DNA from: a virus
Taxonomy: Duplodnaviria; Caudoviricetes
Direction: 5' to 3' (one strand)
Virus record (IMG/VR): IMGVR_UViG_3300024988_000205
Location: 1-37,430 of that record
DNA length: 37,430 nt
Part shown: positions 1 to 25,561 of the stretch, piece by piece
Position numbering within the stretch: the first letter of the stretch is position 1
Layout of the letters: each line of letters begins with the position of its first letter
Notes under the pieces: generated by a model
Told to the model about the DNA's origin: nothing
What the model saw: only the letters and a program-made list of their open reading frames with translations
Databases searched by the model: none
Program-made: the position numbers and the translations under genes

Positions 1-951
1 CTATTTGGCTTTGAACGCCCGCAGCATCGCGTCGCGCTGCTGTTCGATCTGCATGTGCGCGTAGCGCTCGGTCGTTTTCACGCTGCTGTGGCCGAGGATC
101 TTGGACACGGTGAAGAGGTCGGCGCCGGTGGCGATGAGGATGCTGGCGCAGCTGTGGCGGAGGTCGTGGAAGTTGACGTCGGGCATGCCGGCGTCTTCGC
201 GCGCGCGGCGCCAGGCGCTTTTGATTCCTTCGATGCCGACTTCGAGCGGGAAGTGCTTTAGCCACGGGCGCAGGGCCGGCACGATGGGCACGGTGCGGGT
301 GCGCAGGGTCTTGGTGTTGCCGGCGTGGATGATGAGGCTGTCGCGGCCGATGTCTTCGCGGCGCAGTTTGACGATTTCGCCGCGCCTAGCGCCGGTGAGC
401 AGGGCGGTCCAGATGGCGGCCTGCACCGGCGTGCTGCAATGGCTGGCGATGGACTGCACCTGGTCGAGGCTGAGGTAGGTGCTGCGGGCGTTGTTCTCGG
501 GCAGGCGCTTGACGTGAGCGCTGTAATCGACGGGGATGAGTCCGCGCTCCCAGGCGAGGCGCAGGGCTTTCTTGAGGGTGCCGAGGCTGCGGTTGATGGT
601 GCCGGCGGCGTAGTGGCCGGCCATGTCCTTGACGATGTGGGCGGCAGCCTGGCGGGCCTGACTGGCGCGGTATTTTTCGAGCCAGAGCGCGATGCGGCGG
701 GCGTGGTCGAGGGCGGTCTTGGTGCTGCGCAGGGTTTCGGCGTGGGCGACGTACAGGCTGATGACTTCGGTAAGGCGCGGGTCGCTGGGGATACGCGGCG
801 TTTTGGCGACGGCGAGCGCGGCGCGCAGGTCGGCTTCTAGCTGCTTGGCAGCACCCGCAGTTGCGTCTTGCGGCAGGATGCGGTGAACTCGGCGCCCGTC
901 GACCATAATGCCGACGTGCCGGCGTCCCTTCTTGTCTGTCCAGATTGACAT
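1..951 (-). CDS. int: Phage tyrosine integrase
   Basis: Likely start MSIWTDKKGRRH (ATG at 951). Catalytic motifs LLTGARRGE, HDLRH and LGHSSVKTTERY. Confidence 0.95.
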   Translation of the reverse strand: MSIWTDKKGRRHVGIMVDGRRVHRILPQDATAGAAKQLEADLRAALAVAKTPRIPSDPRLTEVISLYVAHAETLRSTKTALDHARRIALWLEKYRASQARQAAAHIVKDMAGHYAAGTINRSLGTLKKALRLAWERGLIPVDYSAHVKRLPENNARSTYLSLDQVQSIASHCSTPVQAAIWTALLTGARRGEIVKLRREDIGRDSLIIHAGNTKTLRTRTVPIVPALRPWLKHFPLEVGIEGIKSAWRRAREDAGMPDVNFHDLRHSCASILIATGADLFTVSKILGHSSVKTTERYAHMQIEQQRDAMLRAFKAK

Positions 952-1118
952 GGTTGATTCTCCCGCAGCCAGGCTTTGCACTCTTCCAGATCGTAGCGCT
1001 TGGCCCTGATCCCGACGGGAGTATAGGGCATGCCGTCCAGTTCGAGCCGCCGGACGGTGGACTCGCTGATGGTGAGGGCCGCGCAGAGCTGCTGGCGGGT
1101 GAGGGCAGGGGTGGTCAT
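837..1118 (-). CDS. xis: Excisionase-like winged-HTH protein
   Basis: [31 protein letters not shown]...RYDLEECKAWL is a Xis/AlpA-type pattern. It lies directly upstream of int and overlaps it. Confidence 0.8.
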   Translation of the reverse strand: MTTPALTRQQLCAALTISESTVRRLELDGMPYTPVGIRAKRYDLEECKAWLRENQPCQSGQTRRDAGTSALWSTGAEFTASCRKTQLRVLPSS

Positions 1119-1579
1119 GCCGGCACGCGCTCCAGGATGTGGCCTTGCGCAGCCCGGCGTCGCGCTTCGAACAGGGCGTCGCGGCATTCGGCGCGCGGCA
1201 CGTTGGCGATCTGCTGTTCGTGCAGTTCGGCGCCGCGGTTGATGGCCTGCATTTCGCTGCCGGAGAATCCCCATTTACCGGTGCGCTCGTGGCGGGCCTT
1301 GATCTCCATGAGGGCGTCCTGCAGGGTGTAGACGACGTCGATGTATTCGGGGCCGACGTCGCGTTCGCACAGGATGAGGCTGACGTTGGCCATGGCGGCG
1401 AAGGTCCAGAAGTCATCCTCGATGCCGAGTCCGTTGCGCATGCGCAGGATGCCGGTGTGGATGGCCTTGCCAAGGTCGTCGAGCTGGTCGCGGGTCATGC
1501 CGTGCTGCATGGCGATGGTGTTCTGCCAGGCGAGGGGGTCGGCTACCCAGCGGGTTCTGCGCTTGCCGTGTTTTCTCAT
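1115..1579 (-). CDS. Hypothetical phage early protein
   Basis: 154-aa ORF with ATGA overlaps to both intI upstream and xis downstream. Confidence 0.8.
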
Positions 1580-2598
1580 GCTGTGATCCTGTCAAGCGGG
1601 CTGGTGGCGCCGCACGCGCCCCGGTTGAGTACGTGGGTATAGATCATGGTGGTGCTCACATCGCTGTGGCCGAGCAGTTCCTGCACGGTGCGGATGTCCG
1701 ATCCGGTTTCGAGCAGGTGGGTGGCAAAGCTGTGGCGTAGGGTGTGCGGATGCACCAGTTTGTGGATTCTGGCTGCTTGAGCAGCGGCCTTTACAGCGCG
1801 CTGGATATTGCGCTCGTTCCAGTGGTGGCGGCGCACGCTGCCGCTACGCGGATCGGTGCTGTAGCTCGGCGCGGCGAAGACGTATTGCCATGCCCACTCG
1901 GACGCGGCGCGCGGGTATTTGCGGGCGATGGCGTCTGGCAGCTCGACGTCGGCGTGGCCGGTGGATAGGTCGAGGTTGTGCCAGCGGAGCCGCTCGTCGA
2001 TGTGCTGTATCAGGTCTTCAACCAAGCTGGCCGGCAGCATGGTGACGCGGTCCTTGTTGCCCTTGCCTTCTCGAATGGTGATGAGGCGGCGCGCGAGGTC
2101 GACGTCCTTGATGCGCAGCCGCAGGCACTCCTTGATGCGCATGCCGGTGCCGTAGAGCAGCTTGATGATGAGGCCGTTGGTGCCGCTGACGTGTGCGAGC
2201 AGGGCGGCGATCTCCTGCTGGGTGAGCACGCTGGGCAGGCGCTTGGCCGTTCGGGCACGGGTGATGCCGTCGAGCCATGGCAGATCCACGCGGAGCACGT
2301 CGCGGTACAGAAACAGGATGGCGTGCATGGCTTGGTTCTGGGTGCTGGCGGAGACGTTGCGCTCGGTGGCCAGCGCGGAGAGGAATGCCTCGACCTCGGG
2401 CGCGCCCATCTCGGCCGGGTGGCGCTTGCCATGGAACAGGATGAAGCGCTTGGCCCAGTGCAGGTAGGTCTTCTCGGTGGAGTAGCTGTAGTGCCTGGTG
2501 CGGATAACCGCGCGCATCTGCTCCAGCAGCTTGGGCTTGGGCTGGGTGCCGTTCAACACTTGCGACGGTGTCGCGTTTGGTTTTTCGAGTGTGTGCAT
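1576..2598 (-). CDS. intI: Integron integrase (IntI family tyrosine recombinase)
   Basis: N-terminal [14 protein letters not shown]...[31 protein letters not shown]. Catalytic motifs [25 protein letters not shown] and [14 protein letters not shown]. Integron-specific insertion [10 protein letters not shown]...WQYVF...[18 protein letters not shown] upstream. Confidence 0.97.
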
Positions 2599-2627
2599 TG
2601 GCGCGGGTCTCCGTTGGGTGGGGTGGA

Positions 2628-2665
2628 GTTATGCGACAGGGGGTGTCGGAGAATTTAAGTTGGGC
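2628..2665 (+). other. attI: attI recombination site (predicted crossover G2659/T2660)
   Basis: GTTGGGC core at 2659-2665 next to the intI 5' end, after AT-rich GAATTTAA. GTTGGGCAC matches the reverse complement of the attC1 R'' region (GTTGGACAC) at 8/9. Confidence 0.75.
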
Positions 2666-2898
2666 ACCAGCAGTTCGGCCAGCTTTGTGTTGCCGTCGCC
2701 GCCGTAGGGGATGCACTCGCCGTCCCATCCGTGGCGCAGGTCGTCAACCTTCAACACCGCGCCATCCACTTCAATGCGCGGGTTCCAGTCGTCGCTGAAG
2801 ATGTCGAGCTTGTAGCTATCTGCCACTTGGTGCGCGTGTGATTCATCCTCGGCCATCACCACGCCGTAGGTGGTTATTTCAACCATGTAGAGTTTCAT
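2629..2898 (-). CDS. Cassette 1 ORF, acidic hypothetical protein (89 aa)
   Basis: MKLYMVEITTYGVV... with GGAG RBS 7 nt upstream. It reads through attI and stops at 2629-2631. Confidence 0.8.
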   Translation of the reverse strand: MKLYMVEITTYGVVMAEDESHAHQVADSYKLDIFSDDWNPRIEVDGAVLKVDDLRHGWDGECIPYGGDGNTKLAELLVPNLNSPTPPVA

Positions 2899-2916
2899 GT
2901 CTTCGCTCCAGTCCGT

Positions 2917-3003
2917 GTCCAACAATCCGGTCGAGCCGAGGCCCGCCAGCGTCTTTAATCCTTGCCTGATTCCGTAAGGCCCGGCTCACCGCAAGCGTTA
3001 GAT
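2917..3003 (+). other. attC: attC site 1 (87 bp)
   Basis: R'' GTCCAAC, 5-nt spacer, L'' GGT(C)GAGCCG pairing with L' CGGCTCACC (one extrahelical base), 6-nt spacer, R' GTTAGAT. Confidence 0.92.
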
Positions 3004-3296
3004 GACTCATCACCGAGCCTCACGCGGGCTTCCCATGCTCGCCCGTCGTCAGTCCAGCTTGCCGCCATCGCAGCGCAGCACTCCGAGCACCAGCGGTAGC
3101 TCATCAGCGAGCCGTCGAACACAGCCGCCAGCAGTCGCACGCGCTCGCCCGGCACAATCTCTTGCCGGCACATGCCGCAGGTTCCACCCTTGCGCGCGGT
3201 GCCAATCTTGTCCTTCAGCACCTTGTCGCCAGGGCTTCCGAAATCACCCTCGAAGGGGTTCGTTTTCAAACACTCAGCTTCGTCAAACGTCGTCAT
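2955..3296 (-). CDS. Cassette 2 ORF, putative zinc-binding protein (113 aa)
   Basis: ARKGGTCGMCRQEIVPGE...WCSECC has two CxxC pairs. It stops inside the attC1 loop. Confidence 0.8.
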   Translation of the reverse strand: MTTFDEAECLKTNPFEGDFGSPGDKVLKDKIGTARKGGTCGMCRQEIVPGERVRLLAAVFDGSLMSYRWCSECCAAMAASWTDDGRAWEARVRLGDESSNACGEPGLTESGKD

Positions 3297-3360
3297 CTAA
3301 CCCTCCGTTCGTTCGGACGCTCCGCCTGCGGCTCCGCGCCGCACAACTTGAGCGTTATGC
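3295..3360 (+). other. attC: attC site 2 (66 bp)
   Basis: R'' ATCTAAC (exact complement of the preceding GTTAGAT), spacer CCTCC, L'' GTT(C)GTTCGG imperfectly pairing with L' CCGCACAAC, 6-nt spacer, R' GTTATGC. Confidence 0.92.
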
Positions 3361-3911
3361 CCCTTGCACCGTGCGGCCAGCTCAACCAGCCATTCCGCCA
3401 GCGCCGGGGGCGTGTGCTCCCGCTCTGCCTTCGTTATGTGCGGGCGGTAGTCCTCGCGTTTCCGGCTCTGCACCACGTAGGCCGCCTCGCCCATCACGTA
3501 GGGCAGCGCCGGTATCTCGCCAGGTGCGCAGCCGACCACATAAAACCATGTGGCCTTTTCTGCCTTGTGGCCCCACCACTTCTGCGGCGCAGCCAGCGTC
3601 CATCCTCCGAGCTGGTCGCGTTCGCCAGGTCGCGGTAGTTTCTGCGCATCCCAAAGCGTCGAGCCGGCCGGGTGTTCGAGCACGCCGCCGAATTCCCGCA
3701 CCAGTGCCACAGCCAGGCGCCCGAGGTTCCTTTCGTCCGGCCTCGGGTTTGCAAAGGCCCGTAGCCGGCCCCAGGCTCGGCAAGGAGGGTGCGCTACCAC
3801 AGGCCACGGCCCGTCGTAGGTGCGCGCGTCTCGCTCGGCATCAAACACGTCCACGTCGGAAAGTTCCTTGTAGTGGCTGTCGGCGCGTGCGAAGAGGATG
3901 GCTACGGTCAT
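3297..3911 (-). CDS. Cassette 3 ORF, putative DNA cytosine methyltransferase-like protein (204 aa)
   Basis: VVAHPPC (motif IV PC-like), VLEHP (motif VI-like) and KATW. A canonical FxGxGG motif I is not evident. It reads through the whole of attC2. Confidence 0.6.
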   Translation of the reverse strand: MTVAILFARADSHYKELSDVDVFDAERDARTYDGPWPVVAHPPCRAWGRLRAFANPRPDERNLGRLAVALVREFGGVLEHPAGSTLWDAQKLPRPGERDQLGGWTLAAPQKWWGHKAEKATWFYVVGCAPGEIPALPYVMGEAAYVVQSRKREDYRPHITKAEREHTPPALAEWLVELAARCKGHNAQVVRRGAAGGASERTEG

Positions 3912-3931
3912 CGCGTTTCTCAATCGTCGGG

Positions 3932-4001
3932 GCACAACCCGTCGTGCGAAGGGACGCGCCGCGATGAAGCTGCATCGCGCCCCTCCACTCTGTCATTGAG
4001 T
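3932..4001 (+). other. attC: attC site 3, degenerate R' (ATT instead of GTT)
   Basis: R'' GCACAAC (GGGGCACAAC matches the upstream junction GTTATGCCCC at 9/10 as reverse complement), L'' GTG(C)GAAGGG, L' CCCTCCAC, 6-nt spacer, then ATTGAGT. Confidence 0.8.
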
Positions 4002-4008
4002 GGCCCGC

Positions 4009-4266
4009 TCACGCCGCACCCTTCTTCATATACCGCCGATGCACGTACATGCTGGCGGTGATTCCAAACGGGCCGCCGAGCATGTAGGCGGCGACCTCGC
4101 TAAAGCCGGCTTCCGGCATCAGCCGGTAGAGCGCCAGGTGGCCGGCGCCGATTAGAAAGCTGGTGAGGAATGCCGCCACGTAGTGCCCCTGGTTGACGTT
4201 CTGGCTCTGGAAGCCGAGGGCGAACACGCTCATGAAGCAGCTGGCGAAGAGGAGGAGTTCGTTCAC
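4009..4266 (-). CDS. Small multi-pass membrane protein
   Basis: 85 aa with about three hydrophobic segments and a basic C-terminus. Confidence 0.75.
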   Translation of the reverse strand: MNELLLFASCFMSVFALGFQSQNVNQGHYVAAFLTSFLIGAGHLALYRLMPEAGFSEVAAYMLGGPFGITASMYVHRRYMKKGAA

Positions 4267-4281
4267 GACGGCCGCCCTTGG

Positions 4282-5142
4282 TCAGCTGTTGGCGAACGGG
4301 TTGCCGAAGAAGAACGGGGTCCCGGTCTTCTCCTTGATCTGGCCGATCAGGGTCGAGGTGGCATCTTCGAGCACCTTGTCCTGGCGGATCAGTTCAAACC
4401 AGAAGGTCAACTTGCCGTCGCGTACGCGGTAGCGCAGCCGGGCGTCGATGCGATAGGCGTCGCCGTTCCAGAAGACCTGCAGGCCGATGCTGAAGCGGTC
4501 GAAGACCTGCATTTTCTGGATGGTCTGGGCGTCGTCATCCTGGGTGAAACTCATCTGCACGCCGCCGCTCTGCAGCCGGATCGCGCTTTTGAAGCGCATG
4601 TCCTGGTTGGCCTCGAAGGTGAGTGCCATTTCGAGCATCTGCGCGCCGGTGGGGCTGCCGTCGACGCTGGCGATGTCCTTGAGGTTTTCTTCGATGAACG
4701 AAGCGAAGTCGGGTTGGTTGAATGGCTGTTTGTTCTTGCCCACCCAGCGGTTCCACTCCTCCGAAAACTCGGGCGAGAAGCTGGCCTTGTGGTCGCGCCA
4801 GGCTGCTGCGTCCTTGTCCTCGCCGTGGTCGTTGAGGATGCCGGTGAACTTGACGTCGCCAGCCTTGTAATTGGCGATGCACCAGATCGTGCTGCTGTTG
4901 AGCGATCCGTGGCGCTTGATGTAGTCGACGAAGCTGTCGGCATCGTTGAGCTCGATGGTCGCTTTCTTGCGGCGCGGGGCGTCGAGCAGCTTTTCTTCGT
5001 CGCGCTCTTCCAGCTTCCAGCCCGGGGGCATGGCAATGCGCTTGATGTGCGACTCGGGTTTGCTGCCGATCTCGGTCGGCGCCTTCATCTCGCGGGACAG
5101 GGTCTGCGCGAGGTTTTCGGTTTCGGTGCTTGCGAGTTCCAT
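4282..5142 (-). CDS. DUF2303 / YfdQ-like phage protein
   Basis: Motifs DADSFVDYIKRH, FASFIEENLKDI, FKSAIRLQSG and ARLRYR typical of this family. Confidence 0.8.
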   Translation of the reverse strand: MELASTETENLAQTLSREMKAPTEIGSKPESHIKRIAMPPGWKLEERDEEKLLDAPRRKKATIELNDADSFVDYIKRHGSLNSSTIWCIANYKAGDVKFTGILNDHGEDKDAAAWRDHKASFSPEFSEEWNRWVGKNKQPFNQPDFASFIEENLKDIASVDGSPTGAQMLEMALTFEANQDMRFKSAIRLQSGGVQMSFTQDDDAQTIQKMQVFDRFSIGLQVFWNGDAYRIDARLRYRVRDGKLTFWFELIRQDKVLEDATSTLIGQIKEKTGTPFFFGNPFANS

Positions 5143-5151
5143 CGTGGTTCC

Positions 5152-5496
5152 TTATGCGGATTTGAGTTGTGTGGGCGCGGCCTCGGAGGCGGACGGCACG
5201 CTCTTGAGATCCAGCTTTTGCTGGTGTGGATCGTCGGCGACCAGGTTGCCCTCGGGGGTGGCGAACAGCATCGCTTCCATCGGCTCGTCGGCGGGCTTGG
5301 TCACCTTGACCTTGCCGGTTAGGATCATGGCGCCGCCGCGCGTGGCCTTCTTCACGTTGATGCTCAGGTCGATGCGCCCGGACTTGCCGGACGAATCGAC
5401 CGCCGCCACCAGCTCGGCGAGTTTGTCGCTGGCGGTGTCGATGAACACGCCGCCGCCGATATGGCGGAGGGTGTCGGTGATGGGTCTTGCTGACAT
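5152..5496 (-). CDS. YfdP-like phage protein (usual partner of DUF2303)
   Basis: MSARPITDTLRHIGGG...LAELVAAVDSSGKSG...FATPEGNLVADDPHQQKL, with AAGGAG RBS. Confidence 0.75.
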   Translation of the reverse strand: MSARPITDTLRHIGGGVFIDTASDKLAELVAAVDSSGKSGRIDLSINVKKATRGGAMILTGKVKVTKPADEPMEAMLFATPEGNLVADDPHQQKLDLKSVPSASEAAPTQLKSA

Positions 5497-5546
5497 TTTG
5501 ATACTCCTTTTACGGCCTGGCTCGATGGGGCAGGCTTCCCGGGTGG

Positions 5547-6122
5547 TCAAGCGGTTTGCTCCAGGCGTTCGGCGACGGCGAGCGTGGTCAGCTCGCGGAT
5601 GAGGTCGGCGTGTCGTTCCTTCAACGCCGGCAGGCCAGCCAGGACTTCCTGGCGCCTGGTCGCTGGGTCGAGCTTGTCGCGGGCGCAGGTGTGGGCAATT
5701 GAGTGGATGGCGTCGCGAGCCTTGGTATGCAAGCTATTTCCAACGGGGCTGCTGCGATCCCGGAACGACCGGAGCTCGAATCCGTAAAACGGTACGCGCT
5801 CGGCTGTTGCAATCAGCGCGATGCAGTCCGCCACGTCGGCATACAGCAGCGTGGCGAATTCCTTCCTGGCCGCCGTGAGGCGCTTCTCGTAGTCTTTCCT
5901 GATCGCGTCGGCCTCGCGGGCATCCTTCGCGAGCGAGGCGATCACCTTGTCCATCGCCGTGAGTGCGGCGCGGATGGCGGTCGACTCGCCTGCCGTGAGG
6001 CCGTAGTCGTTCGGGTCGATCTTGCGCAGGGCGGTGGCTGTGCGCGCCATGTGGGCCTTGCGCGCTGCGATCACGGCGCCACCGTCGTGGAGCGCCTGGC
6101 TTTTCTGGAGGTCGCTCAGCAT
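5547..6122 (-). CDS. Hypothetical helical protein
   Basis: MLSDLQKSQALHDGG..., 191 aa, starting 2 nt after the upstream stop. Confidence 0.7.
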   Translation of the reverse strand: MLSDLQKSQALHDGGAVIAARKAHMARTATALRKIDPNDYGLTAGESTAIRAALTAMDKVIASLAKDAREADAIRKDYEKRLTAARKEFATLLYADVADCIALIATAERVPFYGFELRSFRDRSSPVGNSLHTKARDAIHSIAHTCARDKLDPATRRQEVLAGLPALKERHADLIRELTTLAVAERLEQTA

Positions 6123-6124
6123 GA

Positions 6125-6358
6125 TCAGGCCGCCATTTCCTCGGCCGCCATCGGTTGCATGCCAAGTTGATGCGCATGCGCCACATGCGCCAGGGTGCGC
6201 AGGTCGTCGACGATCGGCGAGCCCGGGGTGTAGACCGAGGCGTTGACGACCATGGAAGACAGCATCTGCGTGAGGCTGTGCCAGCGCCCGATGCTGGGCC
6301 GGGCCAGCGCCTCCTGCCAGCGCAGCGAGACGATGGAGGGGATGACGATGGGCTGCAT
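6125..6358 (-). CDS. Hypothetical protein
   Basis: MQPIVIPSIVSLRWQEALARP..., 77 aa, TGATG-coupled to the upstream ORF. Confidence 0.65.
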   Translation of the reverse strand: MQPIVIPSIVSLRWQEALARPSIGRWHSLTQMLSSMVVNASVYTPGSPIVDDLRTLAHVAHAHQLGMQPMAAEEMAA

Positions 6359-6504
6359 CACACCACTCCGGCGGCGGCCAGCAGCACCATGACGGCCATT
6401 CCGGCCAGGCACACCGCAGCGATGATGGTGTCTGCGCGTTCGGCCTGCTCGGCCCGGCGCTGGGCGTTGTATGCACTCAGTTCGTTTCTGGTTCCGAAGT
6501 TCAT
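6358..6504 (-). CDS. 48-aa protein with C-terminal transmembrane helix (first gene of the pL operon; not in the ORF track)
   Basis: MNFGTRNELSAYNAQRRAEQAERADTIIAAVCLAGMAVMVLLAAAGVV*, with GGGAGAGGG RBS; its stop overlaps the next ATG. Confidence 0.7.
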   Translation of the reverse strand: MNFGTRNELSAYNAQRRAEQAERADTIIAAVCLAGMAVMVLLAAAGVV

Positions 6505-6666
6505 TGCGATTCCCTCTCCCGTGGTTAATCGGTTCACTGCTCCCCAACATCACCCTGCGTCTTCGTGAGGCTCCTAGCCGGTTGCCCGACCGTGGGATGG
6601 GTCCAGGCCCATCACGTCTGCCGCTTGGGGTGCGCAACGGGGCGCGCGGCTACGGGGTATGTCGTT

Positions 6667-6707
6667 ACTTTATAACCATGGTTCTCAATCTGTCAAGAAC
6701 CAAGGTT
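6667..6707 (-). promoter_or_regulatory. pL promoter with operators OL1/OL2
   Basis: Minus-strand TTGACA (6691-6696) and TAAAGT (6667-6672). Palindromes AACCATGGTT (6674-6683) and AACCAAGGTT (6698-6707) are 24 bp apart. Confidence 0.85.
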
Positions 6708-6765
6708 ATATTTTGTGGCACAATGAAGCCGCGCCCGATGTGGGCGAGTCGAAAAGGAGTCAGGG

Positions 6766-7071
6766 ATGGATCAGAAAGAACTGGCGGAAGCGGGGGCGCC
6801 TGGCCTGCTGTACCGGCGCGAGGATGGCGTGGAGATCCCGCTTGATCAGGGTAATGTGTGGGTGTGGCGCATGGGCCCGTCTGGCCGCTGGATGTTGGCG
6901 CGATACATGGATGGCATGATCGAAGAAAGCTATGCGCCTATGGAAGACGCTGAGCTTGGGATCGCGCTCGCCGCAATCAGTCGTGGTTATCAACCACCAC
7001 GTACCCTTCATCGTCTAGAGACACTGTCTGGGCGAATTCCGCCTGAAGGTGGCTCGGTGCCCGAGGCTTGA
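6766..7071 (+). CDS. Hypothetical protein (immunity-region accessory)
   Basis: 101-aa ORF with AAGGAG upstream. It overlaps the convergent ORF 6977-7180. Confidence 0.5.
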   Translation: MDQKELAEAGAPGLLYRREDGVEIPLDQGNVWVWRMGPSGRWMLARYMDGMIEESYAPMEDAELGIALAAISRGYQPPRTLHRLETLSGRIPPEGGSVPEA

Positions 7072-7180
7072 ACCGCCTGAACACGAGCCCGCCGAAATCG
7101 ACGGTGTAGTGCGCTGGATAGTTGCGAAGTTCGTCCAGCAGCTCGCCGACGGTGATGGTGGGGTGGGGTTTGTTGGTCAT
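6977..7180 (-). CDS. Hypothetical protein
   Basis: MTNKPHPTITVGELLDELRNYP..., 67 aa, ATGA-coupled to the upstream lipoprotein gene. Confidence 0.6.
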   Translation of the reverse strand: MTNKPHPTITVGELLDELRNYPAHYTVDFGGLVFRRFKPRAPSHLQAEFAQTVSLDDEGYVVVDNHD

Positions 7181-7572
7181 GGCGTCGCCGGTGGGCGGTA
7201 GTTGCTTGAGCCGATCAGCGATGCGCCTTGCTCGGTGGTCGCGCTCGATGTGGACTGGAAGACGCCGTTTGTGTCGAGGCTGAAGGTGACTTCGTTGGTG
7301 CGCACGTCGCTGCCGCCCACCAGGCCGCCGATGAAGGGGATGAAGGTTTCGCCGCGCACCCGGACGTCGACGTGTTGATAGACGATTTCGGTGGTGCCGT
7401 CCGACTTGTTTCTCACCACGTTGGGGCGGCCCAGGGCGGCCTCGATCTCGGCGCGCGTGCTCTTGCCGGGCTGGAAGGCGCGGGCCTGGTCGGGCTTGAC
7501 ATCCATGCCGGCGGACATGCAGCCGGCAAGCACTGTGGCCGCGATGATTGTAGTGGCTAGAGTCGTTTTCAT
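7177..7572 (-). CDS. Lipoprotein, SmpA/BamE-like pattern
   Basis: Lipobox VLAG-C; PGKSTRAEIEAALGRP resembles the SmpA/OmlA motif. Confidence 0.75.
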   Translation of the reverse strand: MKTTLATTIIAATVLAGCMSAGMDVKPDQARAFQPGKSTRAEIEAALGRPNVVRNKSDGTTEIVYQHVDVRVRGETFIPFIGGLVGGSDVRTNEVTFSLDTNGVFQSTSSATTEQGASLIGSSNYRPPATP

Positions 7573-7967
7573 GGCTTTGCTGCCGCCACGGTGCGGTTGA
7601 AGTCCAGCGCCTTCTCGTACTGGTCGGGGATACAGCCAATCCAGTTGTCACACCATACCGTGACCAGCATCCGGTACTTGCCGCCACCCAGTGGCTCTTT
7701 CGTTACCCTGGCTGCAAGATACGGGCTGCTGTCGGCTGGGTTGTAGGTTTCGATCAGGACGTTCGTCGCCGTCTGGATTTTGTAGCGGGCGTTGTGAACC
7801 ACCCATAGCTGAGCGGCTTCCCATTTGACGTTGCAGTCGTCGGCGCCGGCGCAGGTCGGGATCGTCCGGTTGATCTCGTTGAGTACGGCTTGGCGTTGCG
7901 GGTCGGCTGTGGTGGCGCAGCCGCTCAATGTGGCGGCGATCAGCACTGCCGTCAGTGTGTTCTTCAT
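7569..7967 (-). CDS. Lipoprotein of unknown function
   Basis: MKNTLTAVLIAATLSG-C lipobox, four further cysteines, GAGGG RBS. Confidence 0.8.
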   Translation of the reverse strand: MKNTLTAVLIAATLSGCATTADPQRQAVLNEINRTIPTCAGADDCNVKWEAAQLWVVHNARYKIQTATNVLIETYNPADSSPYLAARVTKEPLGGGKYRMLVTVWCDNWIGCIPDQYEKALDFNRTVAAAKP

Positions 7968-8036
7968 GATGTTTCCCTCTCCCCTGTTTATTCGAATTGA
8001 AGCTCCAACTGTACCGCGAACATCAACACTCTGGCG

Positions 8037-8387
8037 CTACGCTGGTTTCTTGGTTTTGGTGCTGAGTTCCTTAAGTGCATCGCCAGCCTGAACGAGCCTT
8101 TGCACGTCGTAATCGGCAAGGTCCTGGCATACCTGCACCAGGTGCTTGATCCTTTCGTCGTGCACGTAAAGGCCGTCAACCATATCGCCCTGCCCCTCTG
8201 CCAGCCACATTGCCCTGACGCCGCATGCCTCGGCGAACTGCGCTGTGAACTCCGAGCCCGTGGCGTCGCTTCTTTCCAGCTTGGAGATGTTCTCCTGCGT
8301 GCACACGTTATTGATCCTATCCGCCAGCTGCTGCTGGGTCAGTTTGGCGTGGACGCGTGCCGTGCGTAAGCGTTCTCCGTATTTCAT
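8037..8387 (-). CDS. cI: CI-like repressor (XRE HTH, 116 aa, no peptidase domain)
   Basis: MKYGERLRTARVHAKLTQQQLADRI...QENISKLER...CGVRAMWLAEGQGDM, divergent from cro. Confidence 0.88.
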   Translation of the reverse strand: MKYGERLRTARVHAKLTQQQLADRINNVCTQENISKLERSDATGSEFTAQFAEACGVRAMWLAEGQGDMVDGLYVHDERIKHLVQVCQDLADYDVQRLVQAGDALKELSTKTKKPA

Positions 8388-8394
8388 GGCTTGG

Positions 8395-8466
8395 AACCTA
8401 TAACCACGGTCATAAACAGTCAAAGAACTGTAGTTGTTGACATCAGTAGAACCTTGGTTATATTCT
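8395..8466. promoter_or_regulatory. pRM/pR divergent promoters with operators OR3/OR2/OR1
   Basis: Operators AACCACGGTC (8402), AACTGTAGTT (8426) and AACCTTGGTT (8450) at 24-bp spacing. pR: TTGACA 8437-8442 with TATTCT 8461-8466. pRM on the minus strand: TTGACT (8418-8423), 17 nt, TAGGTT (8395-8400). Confidence 0.85.
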
Positions 8467-8472
8467 GAGGGC

Positions 8473-8919
8473 ATGAGCATGGAATCTCTCCAACAGGCAG
8501 TCGATTTGGCACACGGCCAGGCGCAACTGGCGCGCGGCATTCGCGAGCGAATCCCCGGGTCGAAAATCAGCCAGCCACATGTGTACAAGTGGCTTAACAG
8601 CCCCAACCCCGATCAAATGCCACCGGCCGACGTGGTGCTTGCGATCGCGGACTTTCTTGAGTACCGGATGACGCCGCACGATCTGCGGCCCGACCTGTAC
8701 CCCAACCCCGGCGATGCTCTGCCGTCCCATATGGCTCCGGTATGCAAGTGCGCTTCGACCTTCGGGGAATTCGGCGAGCCGCGCTCGGGTGTCGAGCGCC
8801 GCGATGGCGACCGCCGCCAAGTGAGCGATCCCGACTTTGGTGATTTCGGCGAGCCGCGCGACGGGGAGCGGCGGGAGGAAGACCGCCGGCGCAGCGACGG
8901 CGATGAGGCCGCCGCGTGA
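8473..8919 (+). CDS. cro: Cro/YdaS-like regulator with repeated charged C-terminal extension
   Basis: GQAQLARGI...ISQPHVYKWL...TPHDLRPDLYPNP is a YdaS/Cro signature. First gene after pR. Confidence 0.85.
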   Translation: MSMESLQQAVDLAHGQAQLARGIRERIPGSKISQPHVYKWLNSPNPDQMPPADVVLAIADFLEYRMTPHDLRPDLYPNPGDALPSHMAPVCKCASTFGEFGEPRSGVERRDGDRRQVSDPDFGDFGEPRDGERREEDRRRSDGDEAAA

Positions 8920-12460: not shown

Positions 12461-12726
12461 GAGGTTAGGAAGGTTGGGAGCAGGTTAGGAAGCCTGAATC
12501 CCGCATGGATAAAGGAGGTTCCTAACCTTCCTAACCTTCCCAACCTGTTTTGCTTTTCCTTACACGTAGCGCGTGCATGGCACGCACGCACACGTATACG
12601 CGCGTGCGTAACACCCGCTACACACACAACACCTCGTTTCAGGTTAGGAAGGTTAGGAAGGTTAGGAACAAGCCCTGTTTATGCGGCTTCCACCCTTCCT
12701 AACCTGCTCCCAACCTTCCTAACCTC
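12461..12726. repeat. Nested inverted arrays of 9-bp GGTTAGGAA units; probable replication origin
   Basis: Four blocks of three units in alternating orientation (starting near 12461, 12519, 12640 and 12696) flank a purine/pyrimidine-alternating core, directly after the helicase gene. Confidence 0.8.
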
Positions 12727-24964: not shown

Positions 24965-25561
24965 ATGAAGCACTGCACGAAGTGTGGCGTTGAAAAGCCG
25001 CTGTCCGAGTTCTCGATGCATAGGTCCAGTCGAGACGGGAAGCAGTCGCGGTGTAAGGCGTGCGCTAACGCCTACGCTGCGTATGCCGCTGACCCCGAGC
25101 GCAAGAAGGCAAAAAGCGCCGCGTGGTACAGGGCAAATAAAGAGAAGGCAGATGCCACCGCCGCCGCCTGGAGTAAAGCGAACGCGGCGCGCAAAAGAGC
25201 AACCAACGCGGCGTTGTATGCCGCGAATCCCGAGCGCAAAAAGGCAGTCATGTCCGCGTGGGTGAAGGCGAATCCAGAGAAGGTCCGCGTCATCCAACAC
25301 AATCGCCGCGCACGTAAACGCGATATGGGTGGCAGGTTGTCCTCCAGTTTGCCCGCGCGCCTGTTTTCGTTGCAGCACGGGAAATGCGCGTGCTGTGGGC
25401 AACCGCTCGGCGACAAATACCATCTCGACCACATCATGCCGATCTCGCTCGGTGGCGCTAATACCGACGACAACATTCAGCTTCTGCGCCAGCGTTGCAA
25501 TAACCAAAAACACTCAAAGCACCCGGTTGAGTTTATGCAATCACGAGGGTTCCTGTTATGA
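24965..25561 (+). CDS. HNH homing-type endonuclease
   Basis: N-terminal CTKC...CKAC zinc finger; CACCG...HLDHIMPISLGGANTDDNIQLLRQRCNNQK HNH motif. Confidence 0.9.
   Translation: MKHCTKCGVEKPLSEFSMHRSSRDGKQSRCKACANAYAAYAADPERKKAKSAAWYRANKEKADATAAAWSKANAARKRATNAALYAANPERKKAVMSAWVKANPEKVRVIQHNRRARKRDMGGRLSSSLPARLFSLQHGKCACCGQPLGDKYHLDHIMPISLGGANTDDNIQLLRQRCNNQKHSKHPVEFMQSRGFLL

Follow-up and report, generated by a model that had tools for sequence, protein, structure and literature searches.

The 37,430-nucleotide stretch analysed here (the window) carries a complete integron within an intact temperate prophage. Its cassette genes are inverted, so that they would be transcribed from one early promoter together with intI and xis-int, and the element likely forms a device for swapping accessory genes of the early region. 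The parts of the integron and the orientation of its genes were observed, as were an attI site common to related loci, a clade of IntI proteins associated with phages, and differences in cassette content between near-identical phages.

Genomic setting and the integron integrase

The prophage is complete and unbroken (37.8 kb), and it lies inside a split host tRNA-Val gene with 14-bp att repeats at both ends. Its left end encodes a phage tyrosine integrase, int (positions 1–951, minus strand; PF00589, PHROG 1), whose 14-bp att core is the one found at both prophage ends, and an excisionase-like HTH gene, xis (837–1118, minus strand; PHROG 668/66, E about 1e-6). One phage early gene of unknown function (1115–1579, minus strand; PHROG 20828) separates xis from intI and has ATGA overlaps with both. 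Homologues of xis that are 91–94% identical directly follow intI in three related loci (L009, L036 and L248). Upstream of the cassette array, early genes for a small membrane protein, a DUF2303 protein and a PHROG 204 member were recognized by family matches (4009–5496, minus strand). The initial annotation, made from the sequence alone, had placed an integron between phage early genes and xis-int, and Pfam and PHROG matches on both sides agree with this. The overlap of the intI stop with the next phage start codon (1576–1579) is present as described, and neither convincing flanking terminal inverted repeats nor a neighbouring transposase family match was found, in line with the reported absence of transposon ends and IS remnants.

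The intI gene (1576–2598, minus strand) encodes 340 residues without internal stops and matches TIGR02249 with 465.7 bits, against a curated cut-off of 265. The residues Arg154, Lys182, His285, Arg288, His311 and Tyr320 align with the catalytic residues of IntI1, and Lys227, Tyr228 and Trp237 align with its integron-specific insertion; Vibrio IntIA was also compared, and the roles of these residues are presumably those assigned in IntI1. The set is not found in the XerC/D-like proteins of the host. The claim of an intact IntI with the integron-specific insertion is confirmed. The host has its own intact IntI and attC arrays. The window IntI is 59% identical to the host IntI, which branches elsewhere, and 55% identical to IntI1.

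Recombination sites

The attI site (2628–2665, plus strand) consists of a GTTATGC repeat (2628–2634), a CGACA-N5-TGTCG palindrome (2634–2648), and the crossover G↓TT (2659/2660). The crossover core GTTGGGC (2659–2665, plus strand), located 61 bp from the intI ATG, is the attI core anticipated in the initial annotation. The motif is common to 49 of the 69 IMG/VR IntI loci, and in these 49 the sequence similarity stops at G↓TT. The distance from the intI ATG to the crossover is 45–83 bp in phage-type loci (median 61, n = 47) versus a median of 124.5 bp in chromosomal loci (n = 26). A close copy of the attI pattern occurs in 2 of 200 genomes of the family, and no match other than the source genome itself was found in 400 genomes of the class.

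A covariance model trained on 27 chromosomal attC sites only, run with filters off at E ≤ 1, gave exactly three matches in the 37,430 bases. They are attC1 (2917–3003; E 9.4e-9), attC2 (3295–3360; E 1.2e-7) and attC3 (3932–4001; E 1.1e-4), all with the top strand on the plus strand, and they delimit cassette 1 (2660–2997), cassette 2 (2998–3354) and cassette 3 (3355–3995). In the window sequence, the R'' box matches the R' box at the start of its own cassette at 6/7, 7/7 and 6/7 positions. The same pairing was found at 6/7 or better in 117 of 121 related cassettes, with a mean of 6.75 versus 5.08 for the next R'. The single-strand folding z-scores of the three window sites are modest (−1.7 to −1.8); therefore, the evidence for attC comes from the covariance model and the R-box pairing rather than from folding energy. 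Three attC-bounded cassettes had been proposed, and neither the integrase HMM nor the attC model contradicts the proposal.

The last site, attC3, has a G-to-A change at the crossover base and ends in A↓TTGAGT; in L250, an attC of almost the same sequence has G↓TTGGGC at its end. Judging from this comparison, attC3 is probably impaired. The change looks local to the window. The idea that a degenerate final attC generally anchors such arrays was considered and rejected: the GTT is kept in 22 of 23 sites at array ends and in 93 of 93 inner sites, counts obtained with callers that favour GTT. The mutated last attC, the inversion of the cassette genes and the missing Pc and Pint matches are points that the initial annotation did not mention.

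Cassette genes and their predicted transcription

All three cassette ORFs are encoded on the minus strand; they run against the attC top strand and in the direction of the phage early operon. The cassette 1 gene (2629–2898; 89 residues, function unknown), defined by its translation, crosses the crossover point and stops in the attI repeat. Its product had no Pfam match; the nearest Atlas clusters are 57–100% viral, and six viral homologues were found. The cassette 2 gene (2955–3296; 113 residues, two CxxC motifs; PHROG 19515 and 7314) stops inside attC1, and 9 of its 11 viral homologues adjoin an inverted attC. The cassette 3 gene (3297–3911; 204 residues; PHROG 12600) reads through attC2 and stops beside the ATG of the cassette 2 gene.

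The cassette 3 protein is predicted to be a compact protein resembling cytosine-5 DNA methyltransferases. It had no Pfam match and no sequence match in the PDB. The best folds for its AlphaFold2 model (pLDDT 86.7) are all C5 methyltransferases, including DNMT3 and M.HaeIII (E 3e-4 to 6e-4, with TM scores of only 0.36–0.48), and an HPPC motif is invariant. About 22 of 76 homologues of this gene lie behind unrelated attC sites, and 54 have no attC-like site. A single origin of the cassette form was rejected (9 label changes, AU p 3e-5, 63 rows).

The inverted orientation extends to related loci. In 121 related cassettes, PHROG families matched 42 inverted ORFs versus one forward ORF, while Pfam matched 13/69 forward versus 1/69 inverted ORFs in control chromosomal cassettes, the two tests thus using different libraries. 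Sixty-six of the 121 inverted ORFs terminate at four fixed positions within the recombination sites. For the 79 inverted ORFs without a family match, the strand assignment is based on ORF length and stop position. A crude count of the longest ORF gave 30 ties and 11 forward ORFs of 77. The cargo is diverse (124 cassette proteins in 104 families); many of the phage-family matches on inverted ORFs are DNA-modifying, and the annotated part leans to methyltransferases and to Mom-like and Lar-like genes. A second phage design places forward cassettes 3' of intI, and the genes are again co-directional with intI.

A crude scan found no sigma-70 match for Pc or Pint on either strand in positions 1–6660. 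The sole leftward sigma-70-like match in positions 1–8700 is a candidate early-left promoter at 6667–6696 (minus strand, TTGACA-18-TAAAGT), which is a consensus match only; the scan yielded 3 matches versus 1.4 expected in shuffled sequences. No terminator-like site was found on the minus strand between this match and int. A LexA-type box is absent from the 61-bp intI-attI intergenic region. This box was tried as a discriminator between the two types of locus and proved uninformative because, although it is absent from 47/47 phage-type loci, only 2/26 chromosomal controls have one.

A phage-associated clade of IntI

In a tree of 41 rows, the split between phage and chromosomal IntI proteins had a support of 99/99. 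In a tree of 267 rows, the phage clade comprises 55 rows and contains none of the 96 chromosomal IntIs; its members form 42 clusters at 90% identity. Among unselected metagenome IntIs, 2 of 77 fell in the phage clade, both with a phage-type context. A phage tyrosine integrase gene is found within 4.2 kb downstream in 28 of 39 loci. Within the sequences compared, the clade occurs only in phage contexts; the initial annotation had suggested checking the neighbours of the nearest relatives. The context varies: of the 28 int genes, 5 are convergent, and the L011 locus is flanked by the terminase and portal genes. No clade member was found among 50,697 GenBank phage records (nine matches at E ≤ 1e-60, all below 60% identity).

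The relation of this clade to class 1 integrases was also considered, in trees without IntI3. FastTree first put IntI1 within the phage clade (support 98 and 86), and the IntI1-like group moved out once 77 metagenome rows were added; an origin of IntI1 inside the phage clade was thereby rejected, and the first placement is a probable case of long-branch attraction. In one tree that contained IntI1-like proteins, the phage group was monophyletic with a bootstrap value of only 40%. Support in the IQ-TREE analysis was split: in 1000 bootstrap trees, the phage and IntI1-like sequences were joined in 682, the IntI1-like sequences were nested in a phage subset in 593, and the phage group was whole in 403 (AU p 0.50). 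That class 1-like integrases descend from the phage clade, or are its sister, is doubtful.

Cassette variation among related phages

Phages that are identical over kilobases carry different arrays beginning exactly at G↓TT. In each of three sets of loci (L018/L021/L034, L022/L023 and L030/L031), the phage is one and the same and the arrays part at this point. Different cassettes at the same attI were the variation to be looked for in related phages, and they are found here even between near-identical ones. Together with the phage-context clade and the coupling to the early operon, these differences support the earlier proposal that the phage has domesticated an integron to shuffle early genes. 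The further proposal of exchange with host integrons fared less well. Two of 80 chromosomal control loci (L116 and L139) contain inverted phage-type cassettes, a weak hint that such exchange may occur, and the arrays of this host have no cassette DNA in common with the prophage. No excision joints, cassette circles or attP joints were seen in the contigs of four runs, which cannot show rare forms. The read depth of the prophage is about that of the host, i.e. it was uninduced, and RNA runs matched no more than 8% of the sequence words.

Comparison with known integrons

Integrons and CALINs have been described in phage genomes (Qi et al. 2023, PMC9892861). The three complete integrons found there among 10,705 phages are a slice of the Vibrio host integron, class 1 integrons carried by P1, and an integron of Shewanella type within a cryptic prophage. 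The integrons of the present lineage resemble these in their complete intI-attI-attC arrangement in temperate phages, the presence of DNA methyltransferases in the cassette cargo, and classical attC sites. They differ in their phage-specific IntI clade, systematic gene inversion and xis-int coupling, which do not appear in the accessible text of that study. A match to the integron of the host or to class 1 was not obtained, given the identities above and no common cassette DNA.

The window also shares with class 1 and sedentary chromosomal integrons, as outlined in the available sections of PMC11551772, the recombinase family and its residues, the attC anatomy, an intI divergent from the attC top strand, and the position of the newest cassette beside intI. 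In contrast to them, the cassette genes (3/3 in the window) face intI instead of pointing away from it; Pc, Pint and LexA-box matches are missing; the intergenic region is 61 bp; the cargo consists of phage genes; and expression is predicted from the far side of the array. Inverted-integrase integrons, known from Treponema among others (Cury et al. 2016, PMC4889954, as excerpted), likewise have co-directional intI and cassette genes, but their intI is flipped relative to attC. In the window, the attC top strand is on the plus strand and intI on the minus strand, the standard geometry of intI, attI and attC, and the inversion affects the genes inside the cassettes. From gene arrows alone, one design would be mistaken for the other. 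As abstracted in bioRxiv 10.1101/2024.07.02.601686, bacterial anti-phage defence cassettes also make integron arrays libraries for phage-host conflict; the window is their mirror image, with an array that belongs to the phage. Within the literature searched, including the accessible portions of these sources, phage integrons are already in print as captured host or class 1 pieces, and no phage-specific inverted-cassette design was found.

Proposed mechanism and alternative explanations

The early promoter would read the cassettes, intI and xis-int as one transcript; therefore, induction is likely to trigger cassette exchange. Upon derepression, during induction or infection, IntI would be made alongside Xis and Int, and the attC bottom strands could fold in the replicating phage DNA. 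IntI would then cut out cassettes (attC × attC) and put circles in at attI (attI × attC). Incoming cassettes would land beside intI, the position farthest from the promoter; thus the device would change which genes are present and not, as in Pc-driven integrons, how strongly each is expressed according to its rank.

An alternative that we consider unlikely is that intI is mostly a passenger, often lost, and that a phage-wide pool of inverted cassettes is shuffled mainly by chromosomal IntI in trans. The host does have an intact IntI with attC arrays, and homologues of the window cassette genes lie in inverted arrays with intI within 3 kb in only 1 of 97 loci. In addition, about 11 of 42 stretches with the attI pattern keep attI and often only the first codons of intI, and intI is truncated in several relatives (L075, L076, L210, L221 and L235). 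Against this, the members of 42 clusters, with identities as low as 45%, encode a full-length IntI with intact catalytic residues, and the gene comes with an attI of its own and overlaps the start codons of downstream phage genes. An attI site is usually preferred by its cognate integrase, which also argues against shuffling in trans.

Much less probable is an inversion that serves silencing, with cassettes antisense to an unrecognized Pc or silent after landing in a host integron. The promoter scan was crude, and Pc would miss the inverted phage-type cassettes found in chromosomal arrays. However, the window cassette genes are co-directional with the phage operon and abut it tightly, their homologues are ordinary operon genes in most phages (as in the 54 of 76 above), the intI-attI gap leaves little space for Pc, and the second design keeps the same direction as intI. 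It is more improbable still that a fragment of a host chromosomal integron was captured recently and by chance. Captures of this kind have been published for Vibrio and Shewanella prophages (accessible text of PMC9892861), and the viral locus L064 combines an IntI of chromosomal type with a long upstream region, but the divergence of the host IntI, the lack of cassette DNA common to prophage and host arrays, the inverted phage genes as cargo, and a clade without a chromosomal member speak against it. An assembly chimera of host integron and prophage, conceivable for a source genome that is a metagenome bin with 9% contamination, is refuted by a single unitig (depth 620) that covers positions 1–6221 from int to DUF2303 with 0 differences and by pieces from two other runs (perhaps duplicate records of a single data set) that span the intI-attI-cassette junctions; L248, a genome of the same genus with the same design and other cassettes, also speaks against it.

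Biological significance

Integrons are regarded as platforms of bacteria that enter phages only occasionally. With an early-operon device for gene swapping as the preferred reading, a phage lineage appears to have rebuilt this platform as one that lacks its own promoters, has its genes flipped into line with the early operon, and carries cargo leaning to DNA modification. The DNA-modifying and anti-restriction-type cargo suggests a role in counter-defence. It is quite possible, if somewhat short of probable, that temperate phages of freshwater and wastewater Betaproteobacteria run an old integron lineage that belongs to them and draws on a separate pool of inverted cassettes, and that ordinary phage genes have repeatedly been made into cassettes there. 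If so, it would mirror the defence integrons of bacteria on the counter-defence side and be a tractable system for studying how cassettes are created, the plain and cassette forms of one gene providing a pair for this purpose. The design provides a site-specific mechanism by which the early regions of temperate phages could become mosaic and suggests a route for phage genes into host integrons, and its arrays are a mineable set of candidate anti-defence genes.

Results

Judged by the intI-plus-attC definition, the integron in the window is real and complete, and the initial annotation, which had placed a complete integron with an intact IntI and three attC-bounded cassettes in a temperate phage, is borne out. 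The intI gene (2598-1576, minus strand) scores 465.7 bits against TIGR02249 (cut-off 265), and its product retains every catalytic residue known from IntI1 and the integron-specific insertion. A covariance model trained on 27 attC sites from chromosomal integrons found exactly three sites in the window, attC1 (2917..3003), attC2 (3295..3360) and attC3 (3932..4001), the last with a G>A change at the crossover base relative to L250. The attI site contains a CGACA...TGTCG palindrome with a 5-base spacer (2634-2648). A second one falls within the 5' part of the intI coding sequence (2561-2575), where the spacer is 8 bases in several relatives. Both recur in many relatives and are possible additional binding sites for IntI or a repressor. 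The primase gene is followed by a long inverted repeat (12520-12667) whose ends read TCCTAAC/GTTAGGA; it scored weakly on both strands in a heuristic attC scan and gave no covariance-model match.

The surrounding element is a lambda-like temperate prophage with int, cI/cro, primase, terminase, portal, capsid, tail and lysis genes. It is complete (37.8 kb in total), with a 14-bp core repeated at both ends, about 140 bp to the left and 200 bp to the right of the window. The prophage splits a host tRNA-Val(CAC) beside gltX. In the host assembly G000, the tRNA is broken at the anticodon loop just left of window base 1 (C171:51441-51515), and the prophage carries its own complete, diverged tRNA-Val(CAC), apparently the assembly's sole CAC copy. 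The tail gene region holds an inserted HNH/endonuclease VII-type gene (24965-25561). An assembly chimera is very unlikely: positions 1-6221 are covered without a difference by a single unitig from a run that may be the window's own source, and the junctions are bridged in two further runs, possibly one data set. The few named close IntI relatives belong to Thiobacillus, Sulfuricella and Rhodocyclaceae records, from which we infer a Thiobacillus-like host. This host also encodes an intact IntI of its own, located at the end of a contig (C67:16-1008); its attC arrays lie apart from that gene, on two different contigs (C2:6453-7044 and C29:2520-4626).

In the control set (the best 80 of 588 chromosomal loci, drawn from a 4/64 sample), the attC top strand is opposite intI for every call at a threshold of 11.5, and intI, attI and attC of the window share this standard geometry. 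However, all three cassette genes of the window lie on the intI strand and are thus inverted, a point missed by the initial annotation. The genes extend through the recombination site upstream of them: gene 3 (3297..3911) continues past attC2 to a stop one base ahead of the gene 2 ATG; gene 2 (2955..3296) stops inside attC1; and gene 1 (2629..2898) spans the crossover (2659/2660) and terminates within the attI repeat, 30 bases ahead of the intI start. The overlap of the intI stop with the next phage gene, already noted, is present, and that gene in turn overlaps xis. A crude scan matched a sole candidate leftward promoter (6696-6667, minus strand), no leftward terminator between it and int, and no promoter near attI. 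The window integron is neither of the Pc-driven nor of the inverted-integrase type.

IMG/VR provided 74 IntI loci, or 69 after five lacking the 5' end were left out, and 49 of the 69 share the attI motif. After removal of four duplicates, 121 cassettes were delimited in 33 loci, and R'' matches the R' of its own cassette in 117 of them. PHROG matches in these cassettes fall on 42 inverted ORFs versus one forward ORF; Pfam matches in chromosomal control cassettes (69 of 86 passed the length and R-box filters) are 13 forward versus one inverted. The cruder longest-ORF count gave 36 inverted, 30 ties and 11 forward for viral cassettes (n=77) and 4, 12 and 70, respectively, for chromosomal ones (n=86). 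Annotated cargo comprises 10 DNA methyltransferases, four PAPS-reductase-like, four Mom-like, three DHH, two Lar-like and two PHROG 12600 proteins (the gene 3 family); the remaining PHROG matches are to other families or to ones without an assigned function. Stops of inverted ORFs lie at +9, +2, -5 or -29 from the crossover in 66/121 cases. Inverted ORFs stop beyond their own cassette in 59/121; therefore, their C-termini are set by the neighbouring cassette. The ATG-to-crossover distance in phage-type loci is half of the chromosomal-integron value. As for the neighbours of related IntIs, a phage tyrosine integrase lies within 4.2 kb downstream in 28 of the 39 loci examined and a serine recombinase in one (53 of 94 listed ORFs scanned).

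Eleven phage contigs keep attI and have lost intI (L206, L209, L214, L222, L228, L234, L235, L236, L240, L241 and L247); often the first intI codons remain, most contigs retain an inverted array, and several adjoin terminase or portal genes. L210 and L226 have two attI sites 902 bp apart, with a truncated intI enclosed by the array. In L047 (7500-9000), L062 (9163-9236) and L366, cassettes lie downstream of intI. These doubled attI sites and downstream cassettes suggest secondary-site insertions or rearrangements.

IntI trees, built without IntI3, separated 22 phage-type from 19 chromosomal IntIs at 99/99. In a 267-row tree, the phage-type IntIs, including that of the window, form one clade of 55 (support 91-92) containing none of 96 chromosomal IntIs, although phage-group monophyly had only 40% bootstrap in one analysis including IntI1-like proteins. 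Clustering of 54 of the clade's rows at 90% gave 42 clusters, with identity down to 45%. Two of 77 metagenome IntIs not picked as viral fall inside, one with xis-int downstream and the other with attI and an inverted cassette; both genome-borne members (L248 and L249) are in prophage contexts, and the host's own IntI lies outside.

Related phages carry different cassettes at the same attI. Up to G|TT, identity among L018, L021 and L034 is 100%, after which come three different first cassettes; the arrays of L018 and L021 differ in length, and 99.8% identity resumes beyond them for 3.2 kb. In L023, the first cassette is new and is followed by a 92% copy of the one that comes first in L022; beyond the array, the two are 99.98% identical over 4.6 kb. 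L030 and L031 have common blocks at shifted positions. L248, from a genome of the same genus, has different cassettes with IntI, int and xis at 87%, 92% and 94%. These differences are what attI x attC insertion is expected to leave behind, whichever integrase acted.

Homologues of the window genes adjoin inverted attC sites in 17/80 (gene 3, first caller), 9/11 (gene 2) and 2/6 (gene 1) viral loci, and never forward ones among the 97; intI is nearby in one of these 97. A more sensitive caller gave 20/76 for gene 3, plus two by eye. On the gene 3 tree, cassette forms are intermixed with plain ones. This means that attC was gained or lost repeatedly, the tree being blind to which of the two; intragenic recombination could have contributed. 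The host assembly has a 51% identical gene 3 homologue without attC sites (C146:6986-7501). Two chromosomal arrays, integrons of Gallionella and Halothiobacillus bins (L116:8335-9850 and L139:2960-3780; DUF5131, PHROG 1273), also contain inverted cassettes of phage type. In L064, the IntI is of chromosomal type but the cassettes are inverted, and one of them resembles an L023 cassette. In the virus-classified contig L175 (1-5000), an IntI1-like integrase (62%) that has a LexA-type box and a single forward cassette lies beside an integrase gene.

Another arrangement is seen in L046 (7100-10100), L052 (7600-8800), L054, L057, L060, L073 (7800-8000), L081 and GenBank KX853513 (L164:5700-10639). 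Here the cassettes lie 3' of intI, and the attC top strand and genes are co-directional with it. The first six form a separate IntI clade (99-100), and this design probably solves the same constraint independently.

Discussion

The accessible text of Qi et al. 2023 (PMC9892861), the one study on phage integrons found in the literature searched, and that of a 2026 review (PMC13492144) describe them as captured from hosts. In contrast, the phage integron design of the window is a lineage with a shared attI and a phage-type IntI clade. The inverted-cassette design is absent from the accessible portions of PMC4889954, PMC11551772, PMC13366799 and PMC8138268 and of two 2026 preprints (10.64898/2026.08.16.745060 and 10.64898/2026.09.14.751636); single examples may occur in the figures or Dryad annotation file of Qi et al., preprint supplements or subscription journals.

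Contig data revealed no induction or excision. Most likely, once the repressor is lifted, the early-left transcript would express the cassettes, intI and xis-int together, and IntI would exchange cassettes on replicating phage DNA. Recombination would proceed via the folded attC bottom strand, a chemistry borrowed from established integrons as described in the accessible part of PMC5371416. For the window phage, we infer co-expression of these genes, IntI activity and a counter-defence function of the cassettes.
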